Assembly: GCA_014874175.1 (NCBI GenBank)
Contig: JACWAD010000105.1
Location: 365-64,364, forward strand
DNA from: Thermoleophilia bacterium
GTDB taxonomy: Bacteria; Actinomycetota; Thermoleophilia; BMS3ABIN01
DNA length: 64,000 nucleotides
Direction of reading: 5' to 3'
Shown: in pieces, positions 4,083 through 46,704 of the stretch
Layout: every line of letters starts with the position of its first letter
Numbering within the stretch: the stretch's first letter is position 1
The notes under the pieces: model-generated
The model's database searches: none
What the model was told of the DNA's origin: nothing
The model's input: the letters and a program-made list of their open reading frames with translations, nothing else
Position numbers and translations under genes: made by a program

Positions 4083-4086
4083 TTTC

Positions 4087-4872: not shown

Positions 4873-4894
4873 GGCTCTCCTCCAGGTAATGTTG

Positions 4895-5173: not shown

Positions 5174-5177
5174 GACT

Positions 5178-7424: not shown

Positions 7425-7720
7425 AACATCATCTTTAACAAGCCTGGCGGGATTTTTTTCCGGAGCGGTTCGGCCTGCGGGCCACCGAAAACCGGCCTTC
7501 CACCAGGTCAAACGCCCATCAGATGCCGCTAAAACCGCAAATGAAAGCGGAGGGAAATTTCCCGGCCGGCGAAACAGCCTCCACAACCGCTATCCTCGTT
7601 TGCATCATATTAAACCCGGTTCCCAGTTCCCAATTTCAAAAACTATAACGAATATCAGCGAGTTGTCAAAGAAACATCAAGTTTTTTGGTTTTTTTCAAA
7701 GTCCATATCCAGCATTCGGT

Positions 7721-8560: not shown

Positions 8561-8601
8561 GGCGGAAAAGAAAAAACGGCCCTGCCTGCCAAATGATCGT
8601 T

Positions 8602-8646
8602 GGGTTCCGGGTTCCGGGTTCCGGGTTCCGGGTTCCGGGTTCCGGG
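8602..8646. repeat. Perfect tandem repeat (GGGTTCC)x6 between ftsZ and pgeF
   Basis: Direct reading: gggttcc repeated six times then ggg. The minus-sense RNA carries (GGAACCC)6. Confidence 0.95.
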
Positions 8647-8835
8647 AAAAAACTATACCACTATCTTACTAATTGTAAATAATGAACTGCTACGGAAGCG
8701 GAGCCTGCCGGACATCGGCAGGAAATAGGCAAACCCTTGCAAGCCCTGAGCTAATTCCTGAACGAATTGGATGAACAGTTTGGCCAAGAAAAATGTCAGC
8801 CGGCAGCCGTGAAGGCAAAACGAAAACCGCCCCGC

Positions 8836-9939: not shown

Positions 9940-9951
9940 AACCTCCAGGGT

Positions 9952-11271
9952 TTAGGTTTTGCTCTGCCGCCCAAACCAACCCTTAACCTTTGCCAGAACC
10001 TCTTCCCATAACCCTAAAGAACGGGTTGAGGCTTCTGCCGGCCGGCTCGGCCCCCGCTTAAAAATACGCTCGCTTCCATATAAAATCAAGCCTACGGCGG
10101 TAGCATAGACGGGATTACTGGGGATGTCAACAACGGCTGCGGCATTGACGGGCAGTCCCGGCCGGCAGGGGAAAGACATCACCTGCTCCGCCTGCCCGCA
10201 GATACCCTCAAGCTGGCTCGACCCGCCGGTGAGAACAATCCCTGCAGCAATGCTTGAGAGATAGCCGCTTTCTTTGGCCTGTTTAAGAACGAGAGAAAAA
10301 ATTTCCTTTACTCGCGACTCGATGACGCGCGCGAGGAATTTCTTTGAGAATGTAACGGTCCTTTTTGGGCCCGTTCCGGACACGGTCAGCGAGTATTTTG
10401 CCATCTCGATGTCCTCGACCAGATGGCTCTGGGCATTGCCGTGCTTTATTTTTATCTCTTCAGCTGCGCCCAGGGGCACCTTGAGCGCCACTGATATATC
10501 CCGGGTGATATGGCTGCCGCCCACCGGCAGCACAGCAGAATGGACAAGCCTGCCGGCCACAAAGATAACGGCGTCCGTCGTCCCGCCGCCTATATCCACC
10601 AGCATCACTCCCGACTGAAGATCTTCCTCTTTCAGGCAGGCCCGGCCTGATGCCAGCGGCTCCAGAACAATGTCCCGCACCTCAAGGCCGGCCGCTTCTA
10701 CCGCTGCGATCAGGTTTTGAATCGAGCTGATGGCACCGAATACGACGTGGCCTTCCATCTCAATGCGCTTTGCCCACATGCCTACAGGCCGCTTGATGCC
10801 GTCCTGGCCATCAAGGATATACTGGCGCGGCAGCGCATGTATCATCCTCAGGTCTGGTGATACATCAACATTCTTCAGTCTTTTCAGAAGCATCTGCCGC
10901 TCCGCTTTTGTCACGCGCCCGTCCGCATTGGGATTATCGAGCGACACGCGCCGGTTCATTGAAACCATGTGCGCCCCGGCAACGCCGGCAAAGACACCAT
11001 TGGCCTGCTCCGCTACCCCGGCGGCGGCCGCTGCTGCCTTGATTGATTCAGATGCGTCTTTGATGTCAACAACCACCCCCTTGTGCATTCCCTGCGCTGG
11101 GGCGTTGCCAATGGCTGTTATCTTTCGAAGCTTCCCCTTTTCGTCAAGCTCGCCAACCAGGCAGGCAATCTTGGTGGTGCCGACGTCCAGGGCGATGACG
11201 GGCGGGTACGGGGACACCGCCCCCCTGCTGCCCGCCTGTTTTTTATTTTTCCGATCAGTCATTCCATCCAT
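9952..11271 (-). CDS. ftsA: Cell-division protein FtsA
   Basis: Actin-fold motifs (ALDVGTTKI, DIGGGTTD), position between ftsQ and ftsZ. Confidence 0.93.
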   Translation of the reverse strand: MDGMTDRKNKKQAGSRGAVSPYPPVIALDVGTTKIACLVGELDEKGKLRKITAIGNAPAQGMHKGVVVDIKDASESIKAAAAAAGVAEQANGVFAGVAGAHMVSMNRRVSLDNPNADGRVTKAERQMLLKRLKNVDVSPDLRMIHALPRQYILDGQDGIKRPVGMWAKRIEMEGHVVFGAISSIQNLIAAVEAAGLEVRDIVLEPLASGRACLKEEDLQSGVMLVDIGGGTTDAVIFVAGRLVHSAVLPVGGSHITRDISVALKVPLGAAEEIKIKHGNAQSHLVEDIEMAKYSLTVSGTGPKRTVTFSKKFLARVIESRVKEIFSLVLKQAKESGYLSSIAAGIVLTGGSSQLEGICGQAEQVMSFPCRPGLPVNAAAVVDIPSNPVYATAVGLILYGSERIFKRGPSRPAEASTRSLGLWEEVLAKVKGWFGRQSKT

Positions 11272-11996
11272 TATCCACCACCCGCTTTTGTAACCGGCCG
11301 CTGGGGGACCGATACGTCAACGGAGACGGCCTGGCCGGCGGCAGCCGCCCTGGCGATCAGCTGCTTGAGCACCTCGAACTTGAGACTGTAACTGTCGAGC
11401 GAGCCAAAGTGGACGTTAACGTTTGTTTTCGTCCTTGTGTCGATATCACCACTATTTACACTGACGTTTGTGAACTCCTGGTCAAAATTTTCAGGGATGT
11501 CGGCCAGGAAGTTGATGCCGGTGCTGACATCGGCACAACTTGCCCGATCGCCAGCGGCGCCGTTGCAGGCATCCTTGACTGTCAGCAGCGGCAGATCCTG
11601 GCCGGGGGCCGGCGCTGCAGCGAGAAAATAGCCGTCGCTTGACAACAACAGATAACCGTTTGGCGACTTGAGCCAGGCAACCGGCTGGCGCTCGCGGATG
11701 TGCAGGTGAATCGTGTGGGGAAAATCCCTGTCAATCTCAACGCCGGCAATAAAGGGATTCTGTTTCAGGACCTTGTCAACGCCGTCAAAAGAAAGGCTGA
11801 GCAGGCTGCGTCCGTCAAGCAGGGGCGCCGCCCTGGACAGGATCTGATCTGTGGGCGCGGCGCTGTTTCCGTCAACCTCGATGTGCTCGACCGCCAGCAG
11901 CGACGACTGGCTCAGCCAGAAAAAAGCAGCAACGCAAACTGCCAGAAGCAGCAGCAGGACGCTCAGCCGCCACGGCCAGTGTGAACCGCTGCTCAT
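11271..11996 (-). CDS. ftsQ: Cell-division protein FtsQ/DivIB (POTRA domain)
   Basis: N-terminal TM segment then POTRA-like region. Conserved position. Confidence 0.8.
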   Translation of the reverse strand: MSSGSHWPWRLSVLLLLLAVCVAAFFWLSQSSLLAVEHIEVDGNSAAPTDQILSRAAPLLDGRSLLSLSFDGVDKVLKQNPFIAGVEIDRDFPHTIHLHIRERQPVAWLKSPNGYLLLSSDGYFLAAAPAPGQDLPLLTVKDACNGAAGDRASCADVSTGINFLADIPENFDQEFTNVSVNSGDIDTRTKTNVNVHFGSLDSYSLKFEVLKQLIARAAAAGQAVSVDVSVPQRPVTKAGGG

Positions 11997-13000
11997 CGCA
12001 AGGGATCCAGGCCGGCGCCGCCCAGCAGCCTGACTTCCGGCTCGAGAACGACGCCGAAACTTTCATGCACGCGGCGGCGGCAGATGTTCATCAGGTCAAG
12101 AACGTCTGCAGCCTTGGCGCCGCCCTCGTTGACGATGAAATTGGCGTGCGCCGGGGAAACAATGGCGCCGCCGCTTCGCTCTCCCTTGCAGCCGGCCAGC
12201 TCCAGCAGCTCGCCTGCGCTTTTCTCACCGGGCGGATTTTTAAAGACGCTGCCGCACGTCCTGCCGCCCACCGGCTGGGAGGATGCCCTTCTGCCGCTAA
12301 ACATGGACATCAAGTTACTGATCTGGGCGGCCTTCGCCGGTTTAAGCTTCAGCATGGCCCTGGCGACCACGCCTCCTGCCGGAAGCCGGGCGCTGCGGTA
12401 GCCAAATTCCAGGCCGTCATGGTCAAGCACTGCTGTCTCGCCACCCAGACAAATTTCCACACTTTGAACCAAGTCGCCAATGGCGGCTCCAAAAGCGCCG
12501 GCGTTCATTGCCACGGCTCCCCCGACGCTGCCGGGTATGCCGGCCAGCGGCTCCAGGCCGGAGAGGCCGGCGTCCAGGGCGGCCGCCGCCGCACGGGACA
12601 GCGTGATGCCGGCGCCGCAATCAAGGCGTTCTCCCTCCCGGCTGCATTTCTTAAGGGCTCCGGTCAACCGGATGACAATGCCGGGCCATCCCTCGTCCGC
12701 CACCAGCAGGTTCGAACCCCTGCCCAGCAGGAACCAGGGCAGACCCTGGTCCGACGCCGAAGCCAGGATCGCCTCCAGGTGGGCAGTGCTGTCGGCTTCA
12801 ATAAAAAATGCAGCCGGGCCGCCGCAGCCAATCGTTGTCAGCCGTCCAAGCTCAAGCCCGGCTTCTCCCTTGCTTCCGGCAGCCTCTTCCAGTCTGGCGC
12901 GGGCGGCGCCGCTCAACCGGACCGCATCAGACAAGGCTCTCCTGCCGCTCCAGCGCCGCCAGCAGATCCTCGCCCACCTTGAAAATATCGCCCGCCCCAA
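11993..13000 (-). CDS. murB: UDP-N-acetylenolpyruvoylglucosamine reductase
   Basis: FAD-binding PCMH region (TTIGCGGPAAFF...RGSNLL) and MurB C-terminal domain. The listed start overlaps the murC 3' end by 74 nt. A GTG start near 12925 is more likely. Confidence 0.85.
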   Translation of the reverse strand: MGRAIFSRWARICWRRWSGRRALSDAVRLSGAARARLEEAAGSKGEAGLELGRLTTIGCGGPAAFFIEADSTAHLEAILASASDQGLPWFLLGRGSNLLVADEGWPGIVIRLTGALKKCSREGERLDCGAGITLSRAAAAALDAGLSGLEPLAGIPGSVGGAVAMNAGAFGAAIGDLVQSVEICLGGETAVLDHDGLEFGYRSARLPAGGVVARAMLKLKPAKAAQISNLMSMFSGRRASSQPVGGRTCGSVFKNPPGEKSAGELLELAGCKGERSGGAIVSPAHANFIVNEGGAKAADVLDLMNICRRRVHESFGVVLEPEVRLLGGAGLDPLR

Positions 13001-14318
13001 GAGTCAAAACCAGGTCGCCAGGTTTAATCTCCTTAAGCAGCAACGGCACTATGTCCCTGGGGCGCGGTATGTAGGCGACGTTTGCGCCCGGCTCCCATTT
13101 GAGCGCCGAGTCAACAATCAGCTTGCCGCTGATTCCGGGCTCCGGCTCCTCCCTGGCGCCGAAAATGTCAGTAATGATGGCAAGGTCGCACAGGTTTAAC
13201 ACCTGTCCGAGCTCATCATGAAGATAACGGGTGCGGGAGAAAAGGTGCGGCTGAAAGGCGCCGATTATCCGCGGCCAGCCGGCCGCGCGCGCCGCCTCAA
13301 GCGTTGCCCGCACTTCCGTCGGATGGTGGGCGTAGTCATCAACGATGGTGACGCCTTGAGCTTCGCCCTTGATCTGGAAGCGGCGCGCGGCGCCGCTGAA
13401 ATCGGACAGCGTCGGTGCAGCCTCGGCAGGGCTTAGGCCGACCTGGTCAAGAACCGCCAGCGCCGCCAGCGCGTTAAGAACATTGTGCTCTCCCCGCACC
13501 GCCAGCGACACTCTGCTGCTTGTCTTTCCGTTTCCGGGGCATGCCAGGCTGAAACTGGTTCCTTCCCGCGTGACGGCGACGCCGCCAGCGTGATAATCTG
13601 CTTCGTTATTTAAACCATAAGTAACTACTGAAGCCTTAGTAGCAGAAGCCAGTTCCCTAAGCGGCGGCGTGTCCCATATCACCAAAGCTCCGCTCTCCGG
13701 CAGCTCGGCCACGAATTTTTCAAATACCTGCATCACCTGGTCTAAAGAGCTGTAATGAGAATGGTGATCAAGCTCAATGTTCGTGATCGCGGCGATCTCG
13801 GGATGCAGATAAAGCAGGGAGCCGTCGCTCTCGTCGGCTTCGGCAACCAGCCAGTCGCCGGCGCCGGCGCGTGCATTGCTGCCCACGTCGTTAAGCTCCC
13901 CGCCCACCACGTAGGACGGCTCCAGGCCCAGCGACTCCATGGCGTGCGCAACCATCGAAGTCGTTGTTGTCTTGCCGTGCGTGCCGGCGATGGCGACGCC
14001 CCGTTTCATGCCCATCAGTTCGGCAAGCATCTGGGCGCGGTGACGGACAGGAATTTTCCGCTCCAGGGCGGCCTTAAGCTCCACATTCCCGGAGGAAATG
14101 GCGGTCGAGACAATCACGGCGTCAGCATTTCCCAGGTGGGCCGGATCATGCCCAAAAAAGACAGGGATGCCGCTGGCGTCAAGCATGCGCGTGAAGCGGG
14201 AACGCTTCAGGTCGGAACCGCCGACCTGGTAGCCGAGGCTGTGCGCAACCTTGGCGATGCCGCTCATGCCGGCGCCGCCGATGCCAATAAAGTGCAGTTT
14301 TTGCAAACTAGAATTCAA
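12927..14318 (-). CDS. murC: UDP-N-acetylmuramate--L-alanine ligase
   Basis: HFIGIGGAGMSGIA N-terminus, Mur ligase GTHGKTTTT P-loop. Apparent TTG start. Confidence 0.93.
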   Translation of the reverse strand: MNSSLQKLHFIGIGGAGMSGIAKVAHSLGYQVGGSDLKRSRFTRMLDASGIPVFFGHDPAHLGNADAVIVSTAISSGNVELKAALERKIPVRHRAQMLAELMGMKRGVAIAGTHGKTTTTSMVAHAMESLGLEPSYVVGGELNDVGSNARAGAGDWLVAEADESDGSLLYLHPEIAAITNIELDHHSHYSSLDQVMQVFEKFVAELPESGALVIWDTPPLRELASATKASVVTYGLNNEADYHAGGVAVTREGTSFSLACPGNGKTSSRVSLAVRGEHNVLNALAALAVLDQVGLSPAEAAPTLSDFSGAARRFQIKGEAQGVTIVDDYAHHPTEVRATLEAARAAGWPRIIGAFQPHLFSRTRYLHDELGQVLNLCDLAIITDIFGAREEPEPGISGKLIVDSALKWEPGANVAYIPRPRDIVPLLLKEIKPGDLVLTLGAGDIFKVGEDLLAALERQESLV

Positions 14319-14430
14319 AGTTCCAGTCCCCAGTTCCCAGTTTAAAAAATTGAATCGATTACTAACTTTTTGTCAAAACAGGTGCTTCGATATTTGAAAT
14401 TCGGCATTCGGCATTTTCATTGTCCACCAT

Positions 14431-15540
14431 CTACAATCCGATGTTTCGTACTTCGGCGGCGATGCGATCGGCGCCGTCACGCCGGCCCAGGGCGGCGCTG
14501 GCGGCCGCCATCTGCTCAAGGCACCCGGGGTCGTCCAACAGGGACATCACCCTTTTCCCCAGCACCTCGCCGCTAAGCTCCGCGTCGCTGATAACCTCCG
14601 CGGCGCCGGCCCGGGCCATCCACTCGGCGTTGTGAAGCTGGTGGCTGCCAGTGGCGTGGGGGTAAGGAACCAGAAGAGCCGGCTTTCCCAGCGCCGCCAC
14701 TTCCAGCACAGACGCCCCCGACCGGCCCACCACCAGGTCCGCCGCCGCCATCGCCAGGGGAAAATCATTCGTATAGTCTAGCAAATGATAATTCTCCGGA
14801 TCTGCGCCCTGCTCCTGCAAAACGCTGCTTATAGCCTCAAAATCCCGCTTGCCGCAAACGTGCACCACCTGCAGCTTCAGCATGCCGCGCCCGAATGCTG
14901 CGGCGCAGGCCATGTTGATGGATCTCGCCCCCAGGCTGCCGCCGCTAACGAGCACCACCGGCAAATCGCCGCCCAAGCCAAAGCGCCTTCTTCCCTCTTC
15001 GGGGTCGGCCGCCAGCAGTTTACCGGGCAGCGGCCTGCCGGTAAGAATATATTTGCCCTTTTCCCTTCCCTGGATAGGAAAACTTAAGCAGACGCGGCGG
15101 GCAAAAGGCGCAAGCACGCGATTGGCAAGGCCCATGTGCGAATCAAGCTCAACAATCAGCGCCGGCCTGCGCGTGACGGCCGCCATCAAAACGGGCACGG
15201 CGCTCACATAGCCGCCCCCGCCCACCACCACGCCGGGGCGGCGGCGCCTGAGAATTATCAGGCTGTCAAGGCCGCCTCTAAGCAGCGACCAGAAGAAGAG
15301 GAAAGAACGGAGGGAGAGCCGCCGCTCCAGGCCTCTGAGATCGGCCCGGTCAAGCTCGTATCCGGCCTCGGGCACCAGGCTGTTCTCCAGTCCCCGCGCT
15401 GTGCCGATGAAAGAAACGACGGCGCCTTTATGCGTGAGCGCGTCGGCGAGAGCCAGCGCGGGCACGAGGTGCCCGGCTGTTCCTCCGGCTGCGATTACCA
15501 CCTTCAATTGCTTTGAAATTCCTTGCGCCGGGAGCGGCAA
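14431..15540 (-). CDS. murG: Undecaprenyldiphospho-muramoylpentapeptide beta-N-acetylglucosaminyltransferase
   Basis: IAAGGTAGHLVPALALA G-loop, GT28 C-terminal domain. The true start is probably the TTG at about 15507, which still overlaps the ftsW 3' end. Confidence 0.9.
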   Translation of the reverse strand: MPLPAQGISKQLKVVIAAGGTAGHLVPALALADALTHKGAVVSFIGTARGLENSLVPEAGYELDRADLRGLERRLSLRSFLFFWSLLRGGLDSLIILRRRRPGVVVGGGGYVSAVPVLMAAVTRRPALIVELDSHMGLANRVLAPFARRVCLSFPIQGREKGKYILTGRPLPGKLLAADPEEGRRRFGLGGDLPVVLVSGGSLGARSINMACAAAFGRGMLKLQVVHVCGKRDFEAISSVLQEQGADPENYHLLDYTNDFPLAMAAADLVVGRSGASVLEVAALGKPALLVPYPHATGSHQLHNAEWMARAGAAEVISDAELSGEVLGKRVMSLLDDPGCLEQMAAASAALGRRDGADRIAAEVRNIGL

Positions 15541-16723
15541 TTTTACTCCGTGGATTGACTGCGATATTGAGCAGAATACCTATACTCGCCAAAATAACGA
15601 CAAGGCTGCTGCCGCCATAGCTGATGATGGGCAGGGGCACTCCGGTCAGGGGCAGCATCCCCGTCACGGCGCAGAAATTGACAGTTGCCTGGCTTATCAT
15701 CAGCGTCGTGATGCCAGCCGCCACATACTTGCCGAACGGGTCGCGGCACTTGAGCGCAATGCGGTAGCCAATAAAGGCAAAGACGGCAAAACCGAGCAGC
15801 ACTGCCAGCACGCCGATCAGGCCCAGCTCCTCGCCGATAACTGAAAGGATCATATCAGTGTGATTTTCCGGCAGCCAGTCAAACTTCTGCACGCCGTTGC
15901 CAATCCCGACCCCAAACAGGCCGCCGGAAGCGAGGCCGACCAGTGACTGGATGATCTGGTAGCCCGACCCTTGAGCGTCTTTCCAGGGGTCAAGAAAGGC
16001 TGTGATGCGCGAGGCCTGGTGCGGCGAAACCAGCACCGATAAAGCCGTCGCCACAGAGCCGCCCAGGGCCGGCAGCGCCAGCAGGCGCAGACGCACGCCG
16101 CCGATGATCAGCATAGAGCCGAAGACAATACATATAGTCAAGGAAGTGCCCAGGTCGGGCTCGACCAGCACCAGGCCGCACGCCAGCGCCGGCACGACCA
16201 GCAGCGGCAGGGCCATTTCCCTCAGGCTCGTGAGCAGCCGGCGCCGGGCAGACATTACAGAAGCCATGTAGAGGATGACCGCCAGTTTGACCAGTTCCGC
16301 CGGCTGCGGCTGGAAGCCGCCCATGCCCACGCCGATCCAGCGGCGGGCCCCGTTTGTCTTGTGGCCAATTCCCGGTATCAGCACCAGAGCCAGCAGCGCC
16401 AGGGAAGCAGCCATCAGGAATGGCGCCAGCTTGCGCAGGCGCCTGTAATCAATACGGGCCATGATGAACATTAGCGCCAGGCCGGCAGCCGCGAAAACAA
16501 GCTCGCGCTTCAGATAATAGAAGCTGTCATGGGTGTCGCCTAGATAAGAACCGGCCCAGCTGGCGCTGAAGACCATGACGACGCCAAAAGCCAGCAGCAT
16601 TATCGTCAGGACGGTGAGCACAATGTATTCCGAGGTGCCCGCCGGCCGCCGCCGTGGCCGGGCGGCGCGGCTGCCCAGCCTTCCGCCTGGTTTTCTGCCC
16701 GGTTTCTTCCCGGGTCCGCTCAA
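15428..16723 (-). CDS. ftsW: SEDS-family peptidoglycan glycosyltransferase FtsW
   Basis: About 10 TM segments, FtsW/RodA family, Arg-rich C-terminal tail. Dcw position between murD and murG. Confidence 0.9.
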   Translation of the reverse strand: MSGPGKKPGRKPGGRLGSRAARPRRRPAGTSEYIVLTVLTIMLLAFGVVMVFSASWAGSYLGDTHDSFYYLKRELVFAAAGLALMFIMARIDYRRLRKLAPFLMAASLALLALVLIPGIGHKTNGARRWIGVGMGGFQPQPAELVKLAVILYMASVMSARRRLLTSLREMALPLLVVPALACGLVLVEPDLGTSLTICIVFGSMLIIGGVRLRLLALPALGGSVATALSVLVSPHQASRITAFLDPWKDAQGSGYQIIQSLVGLASGGLFGVGIGNGVQKFDWLPENHTDMILSVIGEELGLIGVLAVLLGFAVFAFIGYRIALKCRDPFGKYVAAGITTLMISQATVNFCAVTGMLPLTGVPLPIISYGGSSLVVILASIGILLNIAVNPRSKIAAPGARNFKAIEGGNRSRRNSRAPRARAGSRRRAHA

Positions 16724-18303
16724 TTCGCCTCCGCCTTTATTTGTTTTACCAGCGAGATGAAGTGATCGCCCCGCTGCTCGAAATTTTCATACTGGTCAAA
16801 ACTGGCGCAGGCAGGCGCCAGCAGGACCACATCGCCAGGGACGGCAGTCTCGGCCGCGGCCCGGACAGCATCTTCCAGGCCGTCAACCACCGTCACGGCC
16901 CTGCCAGCCTCCCTGAAATCGGCGGCTATCCGGGCGGCCGCATCCCCCATGGCAATCACTTCTTTTACCTTGCCGCCCCCAGCCGCCTGTGCCAGTTCGT
17001 TAAATGGACATCCCTTCAGGCTGCCCCCCAAGATCAGGTGAATGCCCTTGTCAAAAGCGGTTAGCGCCCCCACCGAGGCGGCTGCGTTGGTGGCCTTGGA
17101 GTCGTTGACATAGGTGACGCCGCTGACCTCGGCCACGCGCTCCAGCCGGTGCGGCACCCCGGAAAAGCTTCTCAGGCCAACTGCTACCTCTGCCGGCGAA
17201 AGCCCGGCAGAAAGGCAGACGGCCGCAGCGGCCAGCGAGTTTTCCAGGTTATGCTCGCCCTTTACCGAAGCCTCCGGCCAGTAAATAATCTTTTCAGGTC
17301 CCTCCGGTGAGTCTTCGCCGCGGGCGCGGTCTTTCCTGCCAGCACCGGCAACGGCGGCGCCGGGAGAAGCCGCCCTGAACCTGGCTTCCAGGCTGCCGGC
17401 GGCAGGCGCGAGCCTGTCCATGTCGGCATAGATCACATTTTCGCGGGCAAAAACCGCCAGCGCGGGTAAGCCGCTGCCGGACCTGCCGGCGGCGGCGCTG
17501 CTGCCAAAACCGAACCAGATGCTGCCCGCCGGCCCTGATACGGCGGCCTCCCGCACGGCGGGATCATTCGCGTTAAAAACCGCGAGATCCCCCTCCTGCT
17601 GACGCTTGAAAATTCTCATCTTGGCGGAATAATACTCCTCCAGCGTGGCATGGCGGTCCAGGTGATCCTCGCTCAGGTTGAGCAGCACTGCTATATGAGC
17701 GCGGAAATCAACAATATCCTGAAGCTGGAAGCTGGAGAGCTCTACGACAAGAATGTCGCGCTTGTCAACGACTCCCGCCAGCGACGAGAGCGCCGTGCCA
17801 ACGTTCCCTGCCACCCGGCAGCGCCAGCCGGCCCGCCTGAAAATGTGGCCGACGAGTTCGCTTGCCGTCGTCTTTCCGTTCGTGCCGGTGATGCCAATGA
17901 CAGGATTCTGCAAAAAGCGGCCGGCAAACTCGACCTCTCCCCACACGGGCAGTCCACTCCGGCGAGCCTGGCCAAGCAGCGGAATCTCCGCCGGCACCCC
18001 GGGGCTCTTTACCAGCAAGCTGCAGCCGTCCAGAAGGCTGACGTCCTCGCTTCCAAGCCTGAGCTCGACCCCGGCCGCCTCGAGCGCCGCCAGCTCCGCC
18101 GGGGAAGCAGGTTCGGCGCTGGCGTCCGAGAGCACGACCTTGACCCCGGGCAGCAGGCGGCGGGACATTAACGCCGCCGCCCTGCCTGAACGGGCGGCGC
18201 CGACAATCAGCAAAAAACCATTAAACCGGACTTTGGATTCTGGATGTTGGACCTCAGGCACCGGAAGCCCCCGTCTTTTTGTTGCTGTCATTCCGGATGA
18301 CAA
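16720..18303 (-). CDS. murD: UDP-N-acetylmuramoylalanine--D-glutamate ligase
   Basis: GITGTNGKTTASEL, Mur ligase middle and C-terminal domains. The N-terminal roughly 24 codons overlap a heptad array, so the true start is likely near 18231. Confidence 0.9.
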   Translation of the reverse strand: MSSGMTATKRRGLPVPEVQHPESKVRFNGFLLIVGAARSGRAAALMSRRLLPGVKVVLSDASAEPASPAELAALEAAGVELRLGSEDVSLLDGCSLLVKSPGVPAEIPLLGQARRSGLPVWGEVEFAGRFLQNPVIGITGTNGKTTASELVGHIFRRAGWRCRVAGNVGTALSSLAGVVDKRDILVVELSSFQLQDIVDFRAHIAVLLNLSEDHLDRHATLEEYYSAKMRIFKRQQEGDLAVFNANDPAVREAAVSGPAGSIWFGFGSSAAAGRSGSGLPALAVFARENVIYADMDRLAPAAGSLEARFRAASPGAAVAGAGRKDRARGEDSPEGPEKIIYWPEASVKGEHNLENSLAAAAVCLSAGLSPAEVAVGLRSFSGVPHRLERVAEVSGVTYVNDSKATNAAASVGALTAFDKGIHLILGGSLKGCPFNELAQAAGGGKVKEVIAMGDAAARIAADFREAGRAVTVVDGLEDAVRAAAETAVPGDVVLLAPACASFDQYENFEQRGDHFISLVKQIKAEAN

Positions 18304-38232: not shown

Positions 38233-39624
38233 TCATTTCCCATGATAATCATTTTCGCCGGCGTCGGGTATTTTTCGGTCGGTTCGACCTGCCGGCGCCA
38301 AGTGGCTCCCTTTTGCCTCATCCCCCTGAAGCATCAGCTCATGCCGGCCGCCCAGCCGCTCGAGCGCCCGCTCGAACACCGCCGCCTCCGGACCGATCGC
38401 CACCGCTGCCAGTTTCTCGGGGCGGTAATACTGCCCCGCCAGCTCCATCACATCGGCAGCGGAAACGGCATCTATCCGCTCAATAATCTCATCAATGTCA
38501 AGAATCTCCGAGCCGGTCACTGTCAGCTTTCCCAGGCGGCTCATGCGGCTATGCGTTGTCTCCAGGCCCAGCACGAGGCGGCCTTTGGCGTTTTCCTTAG
38601 CGCGGTCAAGCTCATCGCTTTCCAGGGGGGTTTCCGCCAAGGAGCGAAGCTGGGCGGCGATGACGCCAGTCACTTCGGCCACGCTGTCGGCGCGGCAGCC
38701 AAAATAAACCCCGATAAGGCCCGTGTCGGAAAAATTGGTGGCATAGGAATAGACGGAATAGGCAAGACCCCGCTTCTCCCTCACTTCCTGGAACAGCCTG
38801 GAGCTGGCAGTTCCCCCCAGAACGGTGTCAAGGATAGAGAGTGCAAACCGCCGGGGCGAATGGCGGGACAGCCCGGCGCCGCCAAAGCAGACATGGTACT
38901 GCTGCGTTTCCTTGACGTGGAAACTGGCCTCGGCCTCGCCGGCCGGAGCCTCCGGCGGACTCAGCGTGACCGCCAGCGGCGGCGAGCCGTCCCCCGTGGC
39001 TAGGTTTGCGCGGGCCAACTCCACCAGCCGCTCATGTTCCACGTTGCCGGCTGAGGCGATGACCAGGTTGGGAAGCCTGTAATGGGCGCTGTGATACTCC
39101 CGGATCTGATCCGGCGTCATTGACCCGATGATTGCCGCAGCTCCCAGCACACTCTTCCCCAGCGGATGCTGGCCAAAAATCGCCCGGTTGAGATAGTCTG
39201 CAATCAGTTCCGCAGGCGAATCCTCATACATGGCGATCTCTTCCACCACCACCTGCCGCTCGGAGTCGATCTCGGCAAAAGCCGGGTTAAGGACCATGTC
39301 GGCTATCACGTCAAAAGCTTCCTCCAGGTGACGGTCCAGAAAGCGGGCATGCACGACAGTGTATTCGCGCGCCGTGGCCGCGTTGACCTCACCGCCGAAA
39401 GCGTCAAAGAGCTGGGCGATCTCAGTGGCCGCATAGCGTGAGCTGCCCTTGAAAAGCAGATGCTCGATGAAATGGCTGATGCCGCCCTGGCGCTCTTTTT
39501 CATAACGTGAGCCGGCGCCAATCCAGAACCCGAGCGAGACCGAGCGGACTGACTTCAGCTTCTCACTGACAACCCGTCCCCCGGCCGGCAACCTGTCGAG
39601 ACTATATTTTTGGATTGAGGTCAA
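38233..39624 (-). CDS. M16-family zinc peptidase (insulinase-like)
   Basis: HxxEH inverted zinc motif (HFIEHLLFKG). 463 aa. Confidence 0.85.
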   Translation of the reverse strand: MTSIQKYSLDRLPAGGRVVSEKLKSVRSVSLGFWIGAGSRYEKERQGGISHFIEHLLFKGSSRYAATEIAQLFDAFGGEVNAATAREYTVVHARFLDRHLEEAFDVIADMVLNPAFAEIDSERQVVVEEIAMYEDSPAELIADYLNRAIFGQHPLGKSVLGAAAIIGSMTPDQIREYHSAHYRLPNLVIASAGNVEHERLVELARANLATGDGSPPLAVTLSPPEAPAGEAEASFHVKETQQYHVCFGGAGLSRHSPRRFALSILDTVLGGTASSRLFQEVREKRGLAYSVYSYATNFSDTGLIGVYFGCRADSVAEVTGVIAAQLRSLAETPLESDELDRAKENAKGRLVLGLETTHSRMSRLGKLTVTGSEILDIDEIIERIDAVSAADVMELAGQYYRPEKLAAVAIGPEAAVFERALERLGGRHELMLQGDEAKGSHLAPAGRTDRKIPDAGENDYHGK

Positions 39625-41788
39625 TGACCTTGAGCCCGATGCGCTGTTTGCCGTGGTCCTCTTTCACGTCAACCACTTCCACCTCGACAATCTGTCCGCG
39701 CCTGACAATATCTTCTACCTTGTTAACGCGCTTGTCGGACAGATTGGAGATATGGATCAGCCCGTCCACACCCCGCTTGAGCTCCACGAAGGCGCCAAAG
39801 TCCGTGGTTTTTACGACCTTGCCGGTGTACCTGTCGCCTGCCTCGACCTCCTTGGTGAGCGCGTTTATGCGCTTGATGACGCCTTCGGCGCTGGCGCCCC
39901 CGGGGCTGGTGATGAAAACCGTGCCGTCTTCCTCTACGTCGATGGAGACATCAAACTCCTCCACCAGTCCCCGGATCGTCTCCCCGCCCTTGCCGATCAG
40001 AGCTCCGATCTTCTCCGGATTGATCTGGATGGTGAATATGCGCGGCGCGTACTCGGAAAGCTCCGCCCTTGGCTCTGGCATAACCTCGATCATCTTGTCA
40101 AGCACGAAATCCCGCCCCCTCTTTGCCTGCTCGAGCGCAGCCGCCATAATATCGGTCGTAATTCCCTCCTTGATCTTAAGGTCCATCTGAATGGCGGTAA
40201 CTCCCTTTTTGGTGCCTGCCACCTTGAAATCCATGTCGCCCAGATGGTCCTCGACACCGGCGATATCGGTCAGGATTACGTAACCCCGGTCAACTTCCTC
40301 AGAGCCGCACTCCAGGCAGCGGCGCAAAAATACGCCACTGGCCCCGCAGGAGCGGCAGGTGCTGTGGACGATCAGGCCGCAGGCGATGCCGCCCACCGGC
40401 GACGTGATCTTGACGCCCGCATCCATGAGCGCCAGGGTGGAGCCGCAGGTGCTTGCCATCGAGGACGATCCGTTGCTTTCCAGGATCTCGCTGACCAGGC
40501 GAATGGTGTAGGGAAAATCCTTCTCGTCCGGGATCATTGGCCGCAGTGCCTTTTCCGCCAGAGCGCCGTGACCGATGTCGCGCCGCTTGGGGCCACGCAT
40601 GAAACCCGTCTCGCCCACAGAGAAAGGCGGAAAGTTGTAATGATGAATGTAACGCTTGCTCTCTTCAAGCCCGAGGCCGTCGATACGCTGCTCGTCACCA
40701 ACTGCTCCCAGTGTCAGGAGCGTCATTGCCTGGGTCTGCCCCCGGGTGAAAAGAGCCGACCCATGTGTGCGGGGGGCAACGCCCACGGAGCAGCTGATTT
40801 CACGCACTTCTTCGGCTCCGCGGCCGTCAGGGCGCCGTTTTTCCAGCACGATGCTGCGGCGGATCACATCTTTCTCAACCTGCCTCACCAGCGAGGCTGC
40901 TTTACGCTCCAGTTCTTCACTGCCTTCGCCGAAAGCCAGCTGGGCCATGACATCGGCGCGGATTTTCTCAATCCGCTTGGCCCGCTCCAGCTTGTCCGTG
41001 ACCAGATTGGCTTCCTCGAGGGCGGACCGGCAAAGCAAATCAACCCTGGCCATCAGCTCCATGTCTGTTTTCGGCTCTTCGAATGACCATTTTCCCTTGC
41101 CGGCGGATTCGCGGAGCTCATCCTGCAACTGGCAGAGGCGTCGGATCGGCTCCCGCACCAGTTCAACCGCCTGCATGACCGCTTCCTCGCCCACCTCGTT
41201 GGCGCCGGCTTCCAGCATCAGAATGGAGTCAGCAGTGCCGGCGACAACCAGGTCCAGGTCGCACTCGGGCAACTGTAACTGCGGCAGAGTCGGGTTGACG
41301 ACCAGCTCTCCCGCAAGCCTCGCCACCCGGACCGCCGCAATCGGTCCCTGGAAAGGGACCTCGGAGATTGTCAGCGCCGCCGAGGCTCCATTGAGGGCCA
41401 GCACGTCGTAGGCGTTCTCCTGGTCAGTGGACAGAATCGTGGCAATCAGCTGAACCTCGTTGGCGAATCCTTTGGGGAAACGCGGCCGCACCGGCCTGTC
41501 AATTAGCCTGGCGGTCAGGATGGCCTTTTCGCTGGGGCGGGCCTCTCTTTTAATAAAGCCGCCGGGTATCTTGCCGGCGGCGTACATTCTTTCCTCGATA
41601 TCAACAGTGAGCGGGAAAAAATCAATGCCCTCCTTGGCCTCGGTTCTGGCCGTGGCCGTGACCAGCACCATCGTGTCGCCGCTACGAACCACGACGGCGC
41701 CGTTCGCCTGCCCGGCAAGACGGCCAGTCTCAAGCGAGATTGCCTTGCCATTTATGTCAACTTCCTTATTAATTATCAAGTTATTCAT
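39602..41788 (-). CDS. pnp: Polyribonucleotide nucleotidyltransferase (PNPase)
   Basis: Two RNase PH domains, KH and S1 C-terminal domains. 728 aa. rpsO immediately upstream. Confidence 0.97.
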   Translation of the reverse strand: MNNLIINKEVDINGKAISLETGRLAGQANGAVVVRSGDTMVLVTATARTEAKEGIDFFPLTVDIEERMYAAGKIPGGFIKREARPSEKAILTARLIDRPVRPRFPKGFANEVQLIATILSTDQENAYDVLALNGASAALTISEVPFQGPIAAVRVARLAGELVVNPTLPQLQLPECDLDLVVAGTADSILMLEAGANEVGEEAVMQAVELVREPIRRLCQLQDELRESAGKGKWSFEEPKTDMELMARVDLLCRSALEEANLVTDKLERAKRIEKIRADVMAQLAFGEGSEELERKAASLVRQVEKDVIRRSIVLEKRRPDGRGAEEVREISCSVGVAPRTHGSALFTRGQTQAMTLLTLGAVGDEQRIDGLGLEESKRYIHHYNFPPFSVGETGFMRGPKRRDIGHGALAEKALRPMIPDEKDFPYTIRLVSEILESNGSSSMASTCGSTLALMDAGVKITSPVGGIACGLIVHSTCRSCGASGVFLRRCLECGSEEVDRGYVILTDIAGVEDHLGDMDFKVAGTKKGVTAIQMDLKIKEGITTDIMAAALEQAKRGRDFVLDKMIEVMPEPRAELSEYAPRIFTIQINPEKIGALIGKGGETIRGLVEEFDVSIDVEEDGTVFITSPGGASAEGVIKRINALTKEVEAGDRYTGKVVKTTDFGAFVELKRGVDGLIHISNLSDKRVNKVEDIVRRGQIVEVEVVDVKEDHGKQRIGLKVIDLNPKI

Positions 41789-42108
41789 TCTCCTTAAAGT
41801 TCAAGATTGTGAGTTCCAAGTTCAGAGCTGTGAGCCAAATAGTTGTGAGCCAAATGTTTTTTCTTTAAACTTTGAACTTTGAATTAAAAAAACCACGGGC
41901 TTATACGCTCCCGTGGCTGCTCTAGGCTTAAGGCTCAAAATCCGCGCTTTTCCGGTCCGGCAACGGGCCGTTATTTTCTGTTTGCCAGCCGGATTTAATA
42001 ACAGGAATGCCGCAGATTCTCAGCCTCAGGCCTAGAGTTGGAGCTTTCCATGCTCGGCAGCGTTACGCCGGGTTGCGCCAAGAAGGTTTCTGAAAAGAAC
42101 CGCCCGCA

Positions 42109-42378
42109 TTATTTCCTCAGGCCCAGCTCCTTGACCAGGGCGCGGTAGCGGGTCACTTCCTTGTTTTGCAGATAGGTAAGCAAGCGGCGCCTTTTCCCCA
42201 CCATCTTCAACAATCCTCTGCGGGAGTGGTGATCCTTCTTGTGCGTCTTCAGGTGCTCCGTGAGGCCGTTGATGCGCTCTGTCAGAAGTGCTATCTGGAC
42301 TTCCGGAGAACCGGTATCACCCTCGTGGCTACTGAATTTCTCAATAACCTGGCCCTTGTTTTCCCTGCTTAAAGTCAA
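42109..42378 (-). CDS. rpsO: 30S ribosomal protein S15
   Basis: 89 aa, [26 protein letters not shown] is the S15 signature. Confidence 0.97.
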
Positions 42379-42628
42379 TCCTTCACCTCCTCCCCAACCT
42401 GATTATTGCTTTGATGTGGCGGGTCGCCGTCACACAGGTACCGGCCCTGCGCGTCTCAAATGCCTTCCAAAGCTTACCACACTTTGGCTTTTTTTGGATA
42501 ACGGACAATCTTAAAGTCACTAATTCCACCTTTATTAATTAAAAAAAATGCCGATGAGAAATCCTGCCCGGCGTACATCGTGGCAAAAAGAATAAACTCA
42601 TGGCAAGTTACGCCACGGGGAGGCGAGC

Positions 42629-43735
42629 ATGGACACTTCGGCAGAAGCCGCTGCGGGCGCAGGCAGCCAATTTTCCATTCACAGGCTGATCTTCGAGATC
42701 GGGCCGGGGCTGCTGCTCTCGTTTGCCATTGCCCTGCCGGTTTACGAGATTTCCCGCATCAGCAGCTCCCTTGATCCGCTGGCTTTATCATTGATCCTGG
42801 GCATGGTGCTGGGGAACGTGCTGGGGCCGGCTGTGGCCCGTCAACCGGGAGTTGCCGCCGCCACTTCCATCTTCGTGCCCGCCGGCATAGTCCTCTACGG
42901 CTCGCGGCTTGATTTTCAGATCTTTGCCCAGCTTCCGGTTTTTTCGACCATGGCCGTCCTCGCCGCAGTGGCGTCTTTTTTCGTGGTCATGCTGGCAGGC
43001 AGCAAGCTTATGGGGGTTGACAAAAGCACCGGCCTGCTAATTGCTTCCGGCTCCGCCATCTGCGGCGCGGCAGCCATTGCCGTGCTCGCCCCGGTAGTGG
43101 GAGCCCGAAACCGCAATACCTCAGTGGCCCTGATTATCATTACGACAGTTGGCCTCACCGGCGCCTTGCTATATCCGCTGATTGGCGATTTCCTCTCCCT
43201 GCCGGTGGCAACCTATGGGTTCTTTTGCGGCTCCACCCTTCAGCAGATAGGCATTGTCAGGCTGGCAGCGGCGCACATGGGCAAGGAAGCGCTGGCGACC
43301 GCCGTGACCGTCAAGATGATAAGAATCTCCATGCTGGCGCCGGTCTCGATCATTCTGGGAGCGGCCGCATCGCTGAGAGTACCAGGCCGCAAAGAAAGAG
43401 GAGGAAGCAGAGCAGATCTTTTCGCAGGCCGTCCGGCCGGCGCCGCGGGCGGCGCCTGGCGCACCGGAGTCAGCCGCGCCTGGTTTCTGCCCCTGTTTGT
43501 GGCCGTGGCGGTCCTTTTTTCCTTCTTTCAGCCGGCGATTGGCATGAGGGAGCCGCTGAAGCCGCTGGCTTCGATCTGCATGTCAATGGCCCTGGCAAGC
43601 ATCGGCCTTACAGTAAATTTCCAGTCAATAAAGTCCGCCGGCTCGCGGCCGCTGTTTCTTGGATTTGCCGGCTGGGCCCTTGTTTTCATTTGTTTTCTGT
43701 TTGTGATGGTTCCGGCGTTCTCGCTGAGAGGCTAA
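42629..43735 (+). CDS. YeiH/UPF0324-family inner-membrane protein (putative sulfate-exporter family)
   Basis: About 10 TM helices, Gly-rich. 368 aa. Stop is 3 nt before the histidine-kinase start. Confidence 0.6.
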   Translation: MDTSAEAAAGAGSQFSIHRLIFEIGPGLLLSFAIALPVYEISRISSSLDPLALSLILGMVLGNVLGPAVARQPGVAAATSIFVPAGIVLYGSRLDFQIFAQLPVFSTMAVLAAVASFFVVMLAGSKLMGVDKSTGLLIASGSAICGAAAIAVLAPVVGARNRNTSVALIIITTVGLTGALLYPLIGDFLSLPVATYGFFCGSTLQQIGIVRLAAAHMGKEALATAVTVKMIRISMLAPVSIILGAAASLRVPGRKERGGSRADLFAGRPAGAAGGAWRTGVSRAWFLPLFVAVAVLFSFFQPAIGMREPLKPLASICMSMALASIGLTVNFQSIKSAGSRPLFLGFAGWALVFICFLFVMVPAFSLRG

Positions 43736-43738
43736 ACG

Positions 43739-45715
43739 ATGCTGCCGGTTCGCAATAAAAGGAAAAGCATCTTTCGCAAGACGGCGGTCGTCTTTGTGAT
43801 CGTGGCCCTCGTGCCCATTTCCATTATGGGGCTGCACGGATATCAATCGCAGGCGGACGAAATGCAGCATCTGGTTGATGCCGGGAAGGTAAAACCGCAG
43901 GAAAGCGCAAGCCTGCTTCGCTCAACCGAAATCCAAACGCTCGCCTATGCCGGTTACGGCCTGGTTGTGGCGCTGGTGCTCGGTTATTTCTTCGCCGCCA
44001 GCGTCGTCAGGCCGATCCGGGCTTTGCAGGCGGGAGCGCGCCGCATCGGCGGCGGCGACCTGGACTTCCGCGTCGAGACCGACACCGAGGATGAGCTGGA
44101 AGAGCTGGCTGCAACCTTAAACAGCATGGCCGCCGCGCAAAAGTCCCGCGAGGAGGAGATCAGGGCGCGCAGCCGCGAACTCGAGGTTCTCTACGAAATC
44201 TCGCACATGATGACGGAAACGCGGGACCAGGACGATCTCTTAAACAGTGCCCTGGCAAAAACTATTGCCATTACGGGGTCAGCAGCCGGCTGCGTGATGC
44301 TGGTTGATGAGAAAGGCAAGTTTAAACCAGCCATATCAAGAACATCGGACGAGACTGTGCCACTGCCCGGCCCTGCTATTTTCAGGCATATCGCCCGCCA
44401 GGCACAAACGGGCGGGACTGCCGTTTTTAGATACCCCGGCAAGAACAGGAATTACCCCTTTGGGGCTGTTGCCTGCGTGCCGCTGACATTTGAAACCAGG
44501 CTGCGGGGAACGCTGTGCCTCACCAGCGCCGGTGGCAGCTTCCCGCCCGAGACATTAAGAACAATATCGGCAATCGGCAGTGAGCTGGCCGTGGCCCTGG
44601 AAAATATGCGCCTGTTCAGGGAGATGGAGGCGCGCACCTGCGAGCTGAATCAGGCCACGGAGGAGATCGCCAGCCTCATATCGGAAGCAGAGTCGCAGAA
44701 GAGCTTCAGCACCAGGTATCATAACAATAGGCTTGTCAAGTGCTGGCAATTCAAGCATTGCCAGTTTAAGCAGTGCCCTGCATACGGCTCCGCAAGTCTG
44801 CGCTGCTGGCAGATAGCAGGCACCCACTGCTGCGGAAAGGTACAGGGAGTCTTTGCCCAGAAGCTGGGCCGCTGCGAAAAATGCGAGGTGTTCCAGCTTG
44901 CCTGCCCGGACAAAATAACTCTGCTCGGCGAAACTTTCAACAACATGATGGCTATCCTGGAGGAGCGCGTGCGTGAGCAGAAAGAGCTGCAACGGCGCCT
45001 TTACAAGTCCGCGAAACTGGCGGCCATTGGCGAGCTGGCGGCAGGCGTCGCCCACGAGATCAACAACCCGCTCACTGGGATCCTGGCCAGCGCCGTGCTG
45101 TTAAAATCAAAAACACGGCCCGGCGGAAGCTCTGAAAAAAATCTTTCCATGATCGAGAGCGAAGCGCTGCGGGCGCGCGATATCGTCCGCAACCTGCTCG
45201 ACTTCGCCCACATGGGAAACAAAATCAAACCCGAAGTTGTTTCGATAGGCAGCCTTGTTGAGCAGACGCTTTTCCTGATGCGGCACCAGACAGAAAAAGC
45301 CGGCGTCAGGGTCATGACCCGCCTGGACAATGACCTGCCACATTTGAGTCTTGACGCCAACCAGATGAAGCAGGTATTTATAAACATTATCCAGAACGCG
45401 GTACAGGCGATGCCCGGCGGCGGCGAGCTTGTCATAACTGCCTCCCAAACCGGCGGGGGCAGCGGCGGCGTCCGGATTGGCTTCAGCGATGATGGCATCG
45501 GGATGAACGATGGCCAGGTGGCGCGCATCTTCGATCCATTTTTTACCACCAAGCGCGTCGGCGAGGGCACGGGCCTGGGATTGTCGGTGTCACACCGTAT
45601 AGTCAGCGAGCACGGCGGAGAGATCAGGGTAAGATCGAAGCCGTCAAAGGGCTCCACGTTTACCGTTGTTTTACCCTCAAACAGTCGCCAGAAAGAGAGC
45701 CGGCAGGTAGCCTGA
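43739..45715 (+). CDS. Sensor histidine kinase: 2 TM segments, HAMP, GAF, then a Cys-rich insert, HisKA, HATPase_c. No cognate response regulator in the window.
   Basis: HAMP (GGGDLDFRVETD), GAF region, H-box AAGVAHEINNPL, N/G boxes (IIQNAVQAMPGGGEL, DDGIGM, GLGLSV). Roughly 60-aa insert carrying 11 Cys. Confidence 0.85.
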   Translation: MLPVRNKRKSIFRKTAVVFVIVALVPISIMGLHGYQSQADEMQHLVDAGKVKPQESASLLRSTEIQTLAYAGYGLVVALVLGYFFAASVVRPIRALQAGARRIGGGDLDFRVETDTEDELEELAATLNSMAAAQKSREEEIRARSRELEVLYEISHMMTETRDQDDLLNSALAKTIAITGSAAGCVMLVDEKGKFKPAISRTSDETVPLPGPAIFRHIARQAQTGGTAVFRYPGKNRNYPFGAVACVPLTFETRLRGTLCLTSAGGSFPPETLRTISAIGSELAVALENMRLFREMEARTCELNQATEEIASLISEAESQKSFSTRYHNNRLVKCWQFKHCQFKQCPAYGSASLRCWQIAGTHCCGKVQGVFAQKLGRCEKCEVFQLACPDKITLLGETFNNMMAILEERVREQKELQRRLYKSAKLAAIGELAAGVAHEINNPLTGILASAVLLKSKTRPGGSSEKNLSMIESEALRARDIVRNLLDFAHMGNKIKPEVVSIGSLVEQTLFLMRHQTEKAGVRVMTRLDNDLPHLSLDANQMKQVFINIIQNAVQAMPGGGELVITASQTGGGSGGVRIGFSDDGIGMNDGQVARIFDPFFTTKRVGEGTGLGLSVSHRIVSEHGGEIRVRSKPSKGSTFTVVLPSNSRQKESRQVA

Positions 45716-45720
45716 AGCGG

Positions 45721-46704
45721 TTAAATGCGGAATGCGGATGTACCCGCTCTTTTTTTCTGCTGGGCAGCAAATCCCTTGTAGCGGCGCGCGGCGCCTATGT
45801 CCTTTTTGATCTGTTTTACCAGTTCATCAGGATTATCAAATTTCATCTCGTCCCGCAAACGCTTGAGAAAATCAACGCGGACATTGAAGCCGTACAGGTT
45901 CCTGTCAAAATCGAGAATATGGGCTTCAATCCTTATCGTCTGTTTGACTTCCTCGTCTGTTGCGCAAAAAGTAGGATTATGGCCTACATTCACCAGGCAG
46001 GCGTAAGCATCATTGCCAATGTAAAGATCGGCTAGGTAAACGCCGCGGCCGGGGAAGATGCAGTCCATCAGGGCCTCGATGTTGGCCGTGCGCACGCCGA
46101 GCGTGCGGCCCCGCTTGTCGCCATGCACTACCTTGCCGTGCGTCGACGGCGGCCGGCCCAGAATGCCGCGCACCTCCTCCAGGCCGCCCGCGGCCAGCAG
46201 GTTGCGAATGCGGGTGGAAGAGATGGGCGCTCCGCCAGCAGTCACCAGGGGCACCGCCCTCACCTTCATGCCCGTTTTTTTCCCGAACTGCTTCAGAAAT
46301 GCGATGTCGCCTTCCGCCTTGAAGCCAAAGCGGAAATTGCTGCCGACAATGACCTCGATTGCCCCCAGGCTTGAGCCAAACAACAGCCGGCAGAACCGTT
46401 CCGGCGGCAGGCGGGAGAATTCTTTTGTAAAGGGGATAATGAGCAAATCATTAACGCCCAATTGACCAATCAGATCCGTCTTGATATTGAGCGGAGTCAG
46501 AATGGGCGGAGATTTAGCCGGCGCAATTACGGAAAGAGGAGAGGGGTTGAACGTAATCACCATGCTGCGGCAGCCCGCCCTGGCGGCAGCCTTTACGGCG
46601 TCCGAAATGATGCGCTGGTGGCCGACGTGGACGCCATCGAAATTCCCGATCGCTACAGTCCGCTTGCCCGGCGGCACTTCTTCCAGGGAGCGGTAAACTC
46701 TCAC
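45721..46704 (-). CDS. ribF: Bifunctional riboflavin kinase / FMN adenylyltransferase
   Basis: VAIGNFDGVHVGHQ N-terminus, C-terminal riboflavin-kinase domain. Confidence 0.93.
   Translation of the reverse strand: MRVYRSLEEVPPGKRTVAIGNFDGVHVGHQRIISDAVKAAARAGCRSMVITFNPSPLSVIAPAKSPPILTPLNIKTDLIGQLGVNDLLIIPFTKEFSRLPPERFCRLLFGSSLGAIEVIVGSNFRFGFKAEGDIAFLKQFGKKTGMKVRAVPLVTAGGAPISSTRIRNLLAAGGLEEVRGILGRPPSTHGKVVHGDKRGRTLGVRTANIEALMDCIFPGRGVYLADLYIGNDAYACLVNVGHNPTFCATDEEVKQTIRIEAHILDFDRNLYGFNVRVDFLKRLRDEMKFDNPDELVKQIKKDIGAARRYKGFAAQQKKRAGTSAFRI

Follow-up and report, generated by a model that had tools for sequence, protein, structure and literature searches.

The 64,000-nucleotide stretch of Thermoleophilia bacterium DNA analysed here (GenBank assembly GCA_014874175.1, contig JACWAD010000105.1; termed the window) encodes a 658-residue sensor histidine kinase on the plus strand (43739..45715; open reading frame (ORF) list and Pfam), next to a YeiH-family membrane protein. 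Upstream of its DHp helix the kinase carries a cysteine-rich domain, KCWQFKHCQFKQCPAYGSASLRCWQIAGTHCCGKVQGVFAQKLGRCEKCEVFQLACPD (residues 334-391, 44738..44911, +; NF045718 match, profile search and cysteine census). Since a curated model, NCBIfam NF045718, exists for it, this domain is a further member of the already catalogued two-CW family. It appears to be nested in a diverged HAMP-like relay, at a heptad-stepped distance from the phospho-acceptor histidine. We judge the chances evenly balanced that the two-CW module is a metal sensor, probably of the iron-sulfur (Fe-S) type, whose putative cofactor gates the kinase through the HAMP-type connector.

An earlier reading of the window, made from its letters alone (the sequence-only reading), had singled out this insert, and positions 44738-44912 (+) indeed translate in frame to the peptide that it quoted. 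The insert possesses nine cysteines (residues 335, 341, 346, 356, 364, 365, 379, 382 and 389) rather than the eleven then reported; the CC (C364-C365) and CxxC (C379-x2-C382) spacings are present, and the supposed CxxxC is really C-x4-C (C341-QFKQ-C346). The kinase has 13 cysteines in total, nine of them inside 55 residues, and seven of these are conserved in 242-253 of 253 copies of the domain, so that the clustering is beyond chance. Searching the isolated 58-residue insert against Pfam, as the sequence-only reading had proposed, gave no match beyond the noise-level DUF3624, but NF045718 matched it with 36.9 bits (E 3.6e-9; curated cut-off 35 bits); the domain is thus already catalogued, with no function assigned. 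The margin is narrow, as a 110-residue segment that includes the flanks scored 34.7 bits, just under the cut-off. The domains of orthologues and paralogues scored 43.5-43.7 bits, and kinase-embedded copies overall 35-44 bits.

The window domain and the NF045718 model share two Cys-Trp dipeptides (C335-W336 and C356-W357 in the kinase), the same order of seven cysteines and a central G-T-x-C-G-G-x-V-Q-G-x-F-A-x-K motif. They differ in that small stand-alone proteins with the domain in tandem form the core of the model, their C2-C4 loop being ~20 residues longer than that of the kinase-embedded short-loop form, and in that the model does not describe nesting in a HAMP-like unit. One such stand-alone tandem protein, P0232, matched model positions 1-80 with 208 bits. 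An exhaustive search of 1.84 billion representative proteins (clusters at 50% identity) with a profile built from 34 inserts matched 1,686 clusters at E<=1e-3, of which 625 remained at E<=1e-10; two copies are present in some of the proteins. Word-indexed searches were insensitive, as the 86-residue insert found no match and a 50-sequence domain alignment retrieved 10 short proteins. Full-length homologues are labelled as metagenome-assembled genomes (MAGs) of Thermoleophilia, Gaiellales, Actinomycetes or Actinomycetota and fall into two groups, namely 26 orthologues of HAMP-GAF-insert-kinase architecture (P0002-P0027, 50-77% identity; P0001 is identical to the window protein) and paralogues of PAS-GAF-insert-kinase architecture. 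The insert together with ~25 residues on each side is the best-conserved region of both groups.

Census of the 253 copies revealed that the seven family-wide cysteines are nearly invariant (C1 252, C2 252, C3 242, C4 253, C5 250, C6 253 and C7 253), corresponding to C335 (in CW), C341, C346 (in CP), C356 (in RCWQ), C364, C379 and C382 of the window protein. Loss of this pattern in orthologues had been named as a finding that would speak against a sensor; the pattern is kept across orthologues and beyond. The cysteines follow the spacing C-x5-C-x4-C-x9/10-C-x7-C-x14-C-x2-C, with x9 in the window protein, within the signature C-W-E-x3-C-x4-C-P-x8/9-R-C-W-Q-x-A-G-T-x-C-G-G-x-V-Q-G-x-F-A-x-K-x3-C-x2-C. 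Near-invariant positions other than cysteine are W26, T31, G30, G39 and K44. C365, the second cysteine of the CC pair, is unique to the window protein; an HdrB-type CCG motif, considered from HCCGK, was rejected, position 34 being glycine in 152 of the 253 copies and cysteine in no other copy. The eighth cysteine of the window domain (C389, in ACPD) is lineage-specific, occurring in 47 copies.

Most copies stop at seven cysteines (148 of 253), and 95 have eight. The additional one stands either at position 17 (as CPC, 45 copies) or at position 58, just before the AS2 helix (47 copies), and both are occupied in a single copy. The cysteine at position 17 accompanies a tyrosine that replaces the tryptophan of the first CW in 25 of 27 such copies. 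This near-exclusivity hints at an optional eighth ligand, and it may also be a product of phylogeny. An eighth ligand from either position, as if completing two four-cysteine sites, would suit a structural role for zinc, in which the seven cysteines (eight in the window lineage) bind one or two zinc ions that rigidify the HAMP connector or the dimer interface, leaving the sensing to the GAF domain or the membrane part together with YeiH. We regard such a role as rather unlikely; the predominance of seven-cysteine copies (64%) counts against it.

Apart from NF045718, the insert resembles no known domain in the resources searched. The eukaryotic zf-CW zinc finger (PF07496) has no match in the kinase at E<=1, a sequence profile search against PDB chains gave a chance match alone (E 1.3), and a match to a well-characterised domain of non-sensory function was looked for and not found. 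As the sequence-only reading had held, the insert is neither a c-type haem site (CxxCH is absent from it, and no cytochrome family of Pfam matches at E<=1) nor a ferredoxin (the CxxCxxCxxxCP spacing is absent, and Fer4 does not match at E<=1). Our literature search on the two-CW domain and NF045718 found no publication and no solved structure.

We predicted the structure of the kinase, as a monomer, by AlphaFold2. The full-length model, from a 44-sequence alignment, has a mean predicted local distance difference test (pLDDT) score of 79, whereas the model of the segment covering residues 304-423, from a diverse 50-sequence alignment, reached a pLDDT of 90 and a predicted template modelling score (pTM) of 0.81. 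In the segment, an N-terminal helix leads into a compact domain, made up of short helices and a hairpin, and a 31-residue C-terminal helix follows (segment residues 89-119); in the full-length model this last helix is part of an unbroken helix over residues 392-424. A Foldseek search of the pLDDT-90 segment model against PDB returned zero matches at E<=10. The CxxC knuckle C379-x2-C382 and the small, loop-rich predicted fold with its short helices do resemble zinc modules; even so, the structural-zinc explanation finds neither a zinc-finger match in Pfam nor a fold match.

The predicted phospho-acceptor is His439 (45053-45055, +) in the H-box AHEINNPL, 57 residues past C382, the seventh family-wide cysteine. 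In the set of 166 copies linked to a kinase, C7 and the H-box histidine are 57 residues apart in 83 copies, 64 in 17, 55 in 37, 62 in seven and 69 in seven; the values fall into two registers, each advancing by exactly seven residues. Such heptad-stepped spacing is the pattern that would be expected of a continuous coiled-coil link, with which the helix predicted by AlphaFold2 agrees. A discrete, conserved cysteine-rich module sits where the signal enters the DHp helix, as the sequence-only reading had it. The contrary idea, a chance cysteine-rich run or a degenerate linker with no function, could draw on the marginal NF045718 scores; it is effectively refuted by the 625 clusters that the orthologue-built profile matches, by the invariance of the seven cysteines and by the heptad-quantised spacing, and it sits poorly with a segment model of pLDDT 90.

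By Pfam positions the insert lies between the GAF and HisKA domains, as first described, but that description was incomplete, for the insert also appears to be nested in a HAMP-like two-helix unit. In many relatives the domain is preceded by the motif P-x-x-L...E-x-G-D-L-x-x-x-V-x-N and followed by G-D-E-I-G-x-I-x-x-x-F-N-N-M. These flanks are the two HAMP (PF00672) helices, which in the relatives bear the elements P-x-x-L...G-D-L and D-E-I-G-x-L-x-x-x-F-N-x-M. The canonical HAMP connector has ~14 residues, whereas the connector of the two-CW proteins carries a cysteine domain of ~60 residues. In-silico excision of this domain restored a Pfam HAMP match in nine of nine chosen relatives and in 11 of 72 unselected ones; the restored matches span the junction, cover profile positions ~1-52 of 53 and score 30-54 bits (gathering score 25). 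We also made an independent HAMP profile from the orthologues' first HAMP, and hhalign matched the canonical-type flanks to it with a probability of 90.7%.

The window-type flanks read I-x-x-L-I-x-x-A-E-x3-S-F-x-x-R-Y-x-N ... D-x-I-x-x-L-G-E-x-F-N-N-M-M-x-x-L-E. The upstream motif I..LI..AE...SF..RY.N is kept in all orthologues and paralogues, and the downstream G-E-x-F-N-N-M-M corresponds to the AS2 helix of HAMP (DEIGxLxxxFNxM) in the relatives. Aligned to each other by hhalign, the window-type and canonical-type two-CW flanks match with a probability of 97.2% (E 3e-11, 66 columns). The host unit of the window domain is thus probably, by transitive homology, a diverged second HAMP-like relay downstream of GAF. 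It would consist of an AS1-like helix with the start of the connector (residues 305-333, 44651..44737, +, a helix in the AlphaFold2 model), ending in EEIASLISEAESQKSFSTRYHNNRLV, and of an AS2-like helix that begins with KITLLGETFNNMMAILEERVREQKELQRRL and is prolonged into DHp as a signalling helix (residues 392-430, 44912..45028, +). As far as the resources searched show, neither the nesting in HAMP nor the heptad-stepped distance appears to have been observed before.

Among the proteins examined, the two-CW domain is confined to signalling contexts. The 72 unselected representatives contain HisKA (46), REC (28), PAS (~24), GGDEF (8), MCPsignal (6) and HD-GYP (1) domains. The domain also occurs beside outputs that have no other sensor domain, in tandem and as a stand-alone protein, a distribution that suits an input module more than a structural zinc site. 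One short two-CW form is encoded directly upstream of HisKA and HATPase-REC genes. At another locus, L007, a 187-residue protein (3259-3822) consists of two tandem two-CW domains and belongs to a same-strand gene cluster that also encodes PAS, GAF and HATPase_c proteins, two Roadblock/LC7 proteins and an Arf/Ras-like small GTPase; the make-up of the cluster recalls a signalling module of the MglA/MglB or 'conservon' type. The named carriers are all MAGs from groundwater, deep-mine, sediment or hydrothermal samples, and comprise subsurface Actinomycetota, Nitrospirota/Thermodesulfovibrionales, Ca. Sulfobium, Desulfobacterota (Desulfobacterales/Thermodesulfobacteriota), Phycisphaerae and Planctomycetales. 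A plain zinc site would not account for such anoxic-habitat carriers.

We propose that the seven cysteines of the two-CW module would hold a metal cofactor, most likely one or more Fe-S clusters and less likely two zinc ions. Were this cofactor assembled, lost, oxidised or attacked by a ligand, its change of state would displace the insert at both ends, where AS1 stops and AS2 starts; through this displacement the HAMP-like bundle would pack differently, turning autophosphorylation at His439 on or off. As the kinase has just two transmembrane helices and a short loop, the signal would be cytoplasmic redox or reactive-species chemistry and not an extracellular ligand. A reactive-sulfur or sulfite-related signal is a reasonable specific guess, because in this lineage the kinase gene probably shares a transcript, in most cases, with the gene for YeiH, a membrane protein that Salmonella requires for resistance to sulfite stress. 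The response regulator would be encoded elsewhere. The preference for Fe-S draws on three arguments, each of them weak, namely the anoxic carriers, the Cys-Pro at C3 and the aromatic residues that flank two of the cysteines. The idea of the sequence-only reading that the insert is a sensor is plausible.

Several points weigh against this proposal. Seven ligands would be an odd number, the cysteines do not follow any canonical Fe-S spacing, and neither Fer4 nor any other Fe-S family of Pfam matches. The insert has a pLDDT of only 48-70 in the full-length model, and segment residues 61-80 have 62-77 in the segment model. The HAMP assignment of the window unit is transitive only, since it has no direct Pfam or profile match: the excision construct of the window protein shows no Pfam HAMP match at E<=10, its type of flanks aligned directly to the HAMP profile with a probability of 0.5% (hhalign), and even among the unselected relatives a direct HAMP match was confined to the 11 of 72 noted above. 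For the anoxic-habitat bias the sources are MAG names and a genome scan by one peptide pattern, so that it is indicative rather than a systematic census. Finally, YeiH is absent from four of the 12 orthologue-type loci (including that of P0017), where the kinase still occupies its usual gap between rpsO and ribF; the kinase is therefore independent of YeiH.

The closest functional analogue of the proposed sensor is NreB, a Staphylococcus oxygen-sensor kinase with an oxygen-labile [4Fe-4S] cluster in a PAS domain, as PMC8534201 lists it. In both NreB (PMC8534201) and the two-CW model, a cytoplasmic cysteine-ligated cofactor, putative in our case, would lie upstream of the DHp/CA core. They differ in structure, as the cluster of NreB sits in a PAS fold with four cysteines, whereas the two-CW domain shows no PAS similarity and has seven cysteines inside a HAMP-like unit; the two have no fold or motif in common. 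WhiD and NreB were used as comparators only.

The overall architecture of the kinase is TM1, a short loop, TM2, HAMP, GAF, the HAMP-like helix / two-CW / HAMP-like helix unit, DHp and CA. Hydropathy maxima at residues 16 and 75 mark two hydrophobic helices (~residues 16-34 and 75-93; 43784..44017, +) separated by a ~40-residue loop, and the full-length AlphaFold2 model has N-terminal helices at residues 11-47 and 53-104. The kinase thus has no sizeable extracytoplasmic sensor domain, and its N-terminal part is a membrane anchor. It is followed by a canonical membrane-proximal HAMP (residues 84-132, 43988..44134, +; PF00672, E 8.4e-15) and a GAF domain (residues 162-289, 44222..44605, +; PF13185, PF13492 and PF01590; pLDDT ~90 by AlphaFold2), which could be the true sensor if the cysteines served structural zinc. 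Downstream of the two-CW unit stand HisKA/DHp (residues 431-493, 45029..45217, +; PF00512, E 5e-13) and HATPase_c (residues 539-647, 45353..45679, +; PF02518, E 2.9e-27). No PAS match was found in the kinase with Pfam.

The neighbouring ORF (42629..43735, +) encodes a polytopic membrane protein of 368 residues that matches PF03601 over profile positions 1-303 of 304 (206.6 bits against a cut-off of 24.5, E 5.2e-61); it scored 186.8 bits against NCBIfam TIGR00698, under the cut-off of 232.6. Its assignment to the YeiH family in the sequence-only reading thus holds, as does the claim of ten transmembrane helices, for which we find ~10-11 hydrophobic segments. A gap of 3 nt separates its end from the kinase ATG, and the two genes are probably co-transcribed. 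Rfam detected no RNA element over 41700-46000, and counts of promoter-like and terminator-like sequences were the same as the shuffled expectation.

The gene pair lies on the plus strand between rpsO/pnp and ribF-truB-rbfA-infB-nusA on the minus strand. The sequence-only reading placed it correctly within this conserved block, and only its wording of an insertion needs qualification: relatives at 77%, 57%, 55% and 50% identity have the kinase in the same rpsO/ribF gap, so that a recent horizontal insertion of the pair is rejected and the kinase is an old feature of the lineage. YeiH is encoded directly upstream of the kinase in eight of the 12 orthologue-type loci and at L001, L002 and L003/L004.

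In Salmonella, YeiH is the main determinant of resistance to sulfite stress and is controlled by the sulfite-binding LysR regulator YeiE (PMC12880088). Similar to this module, the window encodes a YeiH-family membrane protein beside a presumed regulator; the Salmonella regulator is a LysR protein transcribed separately (PMC12880088), whereas in the window it is a co-oriented histidine kinase. At most, we infer a regulatory link between the kinase and YeiH. The same pairing bears on a metal-free thiol switch, in which reversible disulfides, persulfides or S-sulfonates (by sulfitolysis or sulfane sulfur) would strain the connector and switch the kinase that accompanies YeiH. The high density of cysteines, the role of YeiH in sulfite stress (PMC12880088) and a paralogue that adjoins two rhodanese genes would all suit such a switch. 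We nonetheless think it improbable, as seven invariant cysteines, together with invariant Trp, Gly and Thr at fixed distances, are what a cofactor cage typically shows and more than a disulfide switch of one or two pairs would need, the domain serves many outputs in contexts unrelated to YeiH, and one third of the orthologue-type loci lack YeiH.

The kinase was called an orphan in the sequence-only reading, and indeed the six-frame ORFs of the 64-kb window revealed no receiver domain, nor was one found within 4 kb of the kinase at the 12 orthologue-type loci. Two kinases with a two-CW domain are usual in genomes of this lineage, one the orphan between rpsO and ribF, the other the PAS-containing one. 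The paralogue, with its PAS-GAF-two-CW arrangement, has a single-domain receiver directly after it at every locus with enough downstream DNA; at L018, L020-L024, L026-L035 and L039 this receiver ORF has ~130-165 residues (one ~200). DHp helix 2 is nearly identical between the two groups, and a few positions of helix 1 differ. It is possible that both kinase groups share a receiver partner, the one encoded beside the paralogue being the candidate. At L005 (paralogue P0056, ~4000-17000), the PAS-GAF-two-CW kinase and its single-domain receiver lie between two gene sets, one for CbiM/CbiQ/ABC cobalt or nickel uptake with CooT, the other an HMA P-type ATPase followed by the two rhodanese genes; these metal and sulfur surroundings might bear on the signal.

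Elsewhere in the surroundings, the polynucleotide phosphorylase PNPase (39602..41788, -) has a zinc-ribbon-like CxxC-x10-CxxC insert, CRSCGASGVFLRRCLEC, at residues 478-494 in its second RNase PH region, which is kept in the relatives L001, L002 and L003. These relatives have a DUF503 gene between rbfA and infB (L001 12305-12649, L002 12325-12663 and L003 12171-12449), and futalosine-pathway-like genes (PF02621 and a CofH_C radical SAM protein) follow pnp and an M16 peptidase.

Cytoplasmic cofactor sensing in histidine kinases is associated with PAS or GAF folds that carry haem, flavin adenine dinucleotide (FAD) or, in NreB, a [4Fe-4S] cluster, and HAMP is regarded as a passive relay. If the proposed mechanism is true, a seven-cysteine module in the HAMP connector, heptad-locked to the phospho-His, would represent a different entry of the signal into the relay and a natural system for testing models of HAMP signalling. 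A broader version is possible, although we hold it to be doubtful: two-CW domains would form an uncharacterised class of Fe-S or metal-cluster sensors in the HAMP connector, reused by more than 1,000 kinase, chemoreceptor and diguanylate-cyclase families of anaerobes, with the cofactor state setting the HAMP conformation and here coupling sulfite or redox stress to YeiH. With at least 1,686 clusters at 50% identity, the family is a large one; it is uncharacterised and carried by uncultured subsurface anaerobes, so that a single characterisation would annotate many sensors, and the recurrent pairing with YeiH offers a concrete physiological lead, a response to sulfite or reactive-sulfur stress.

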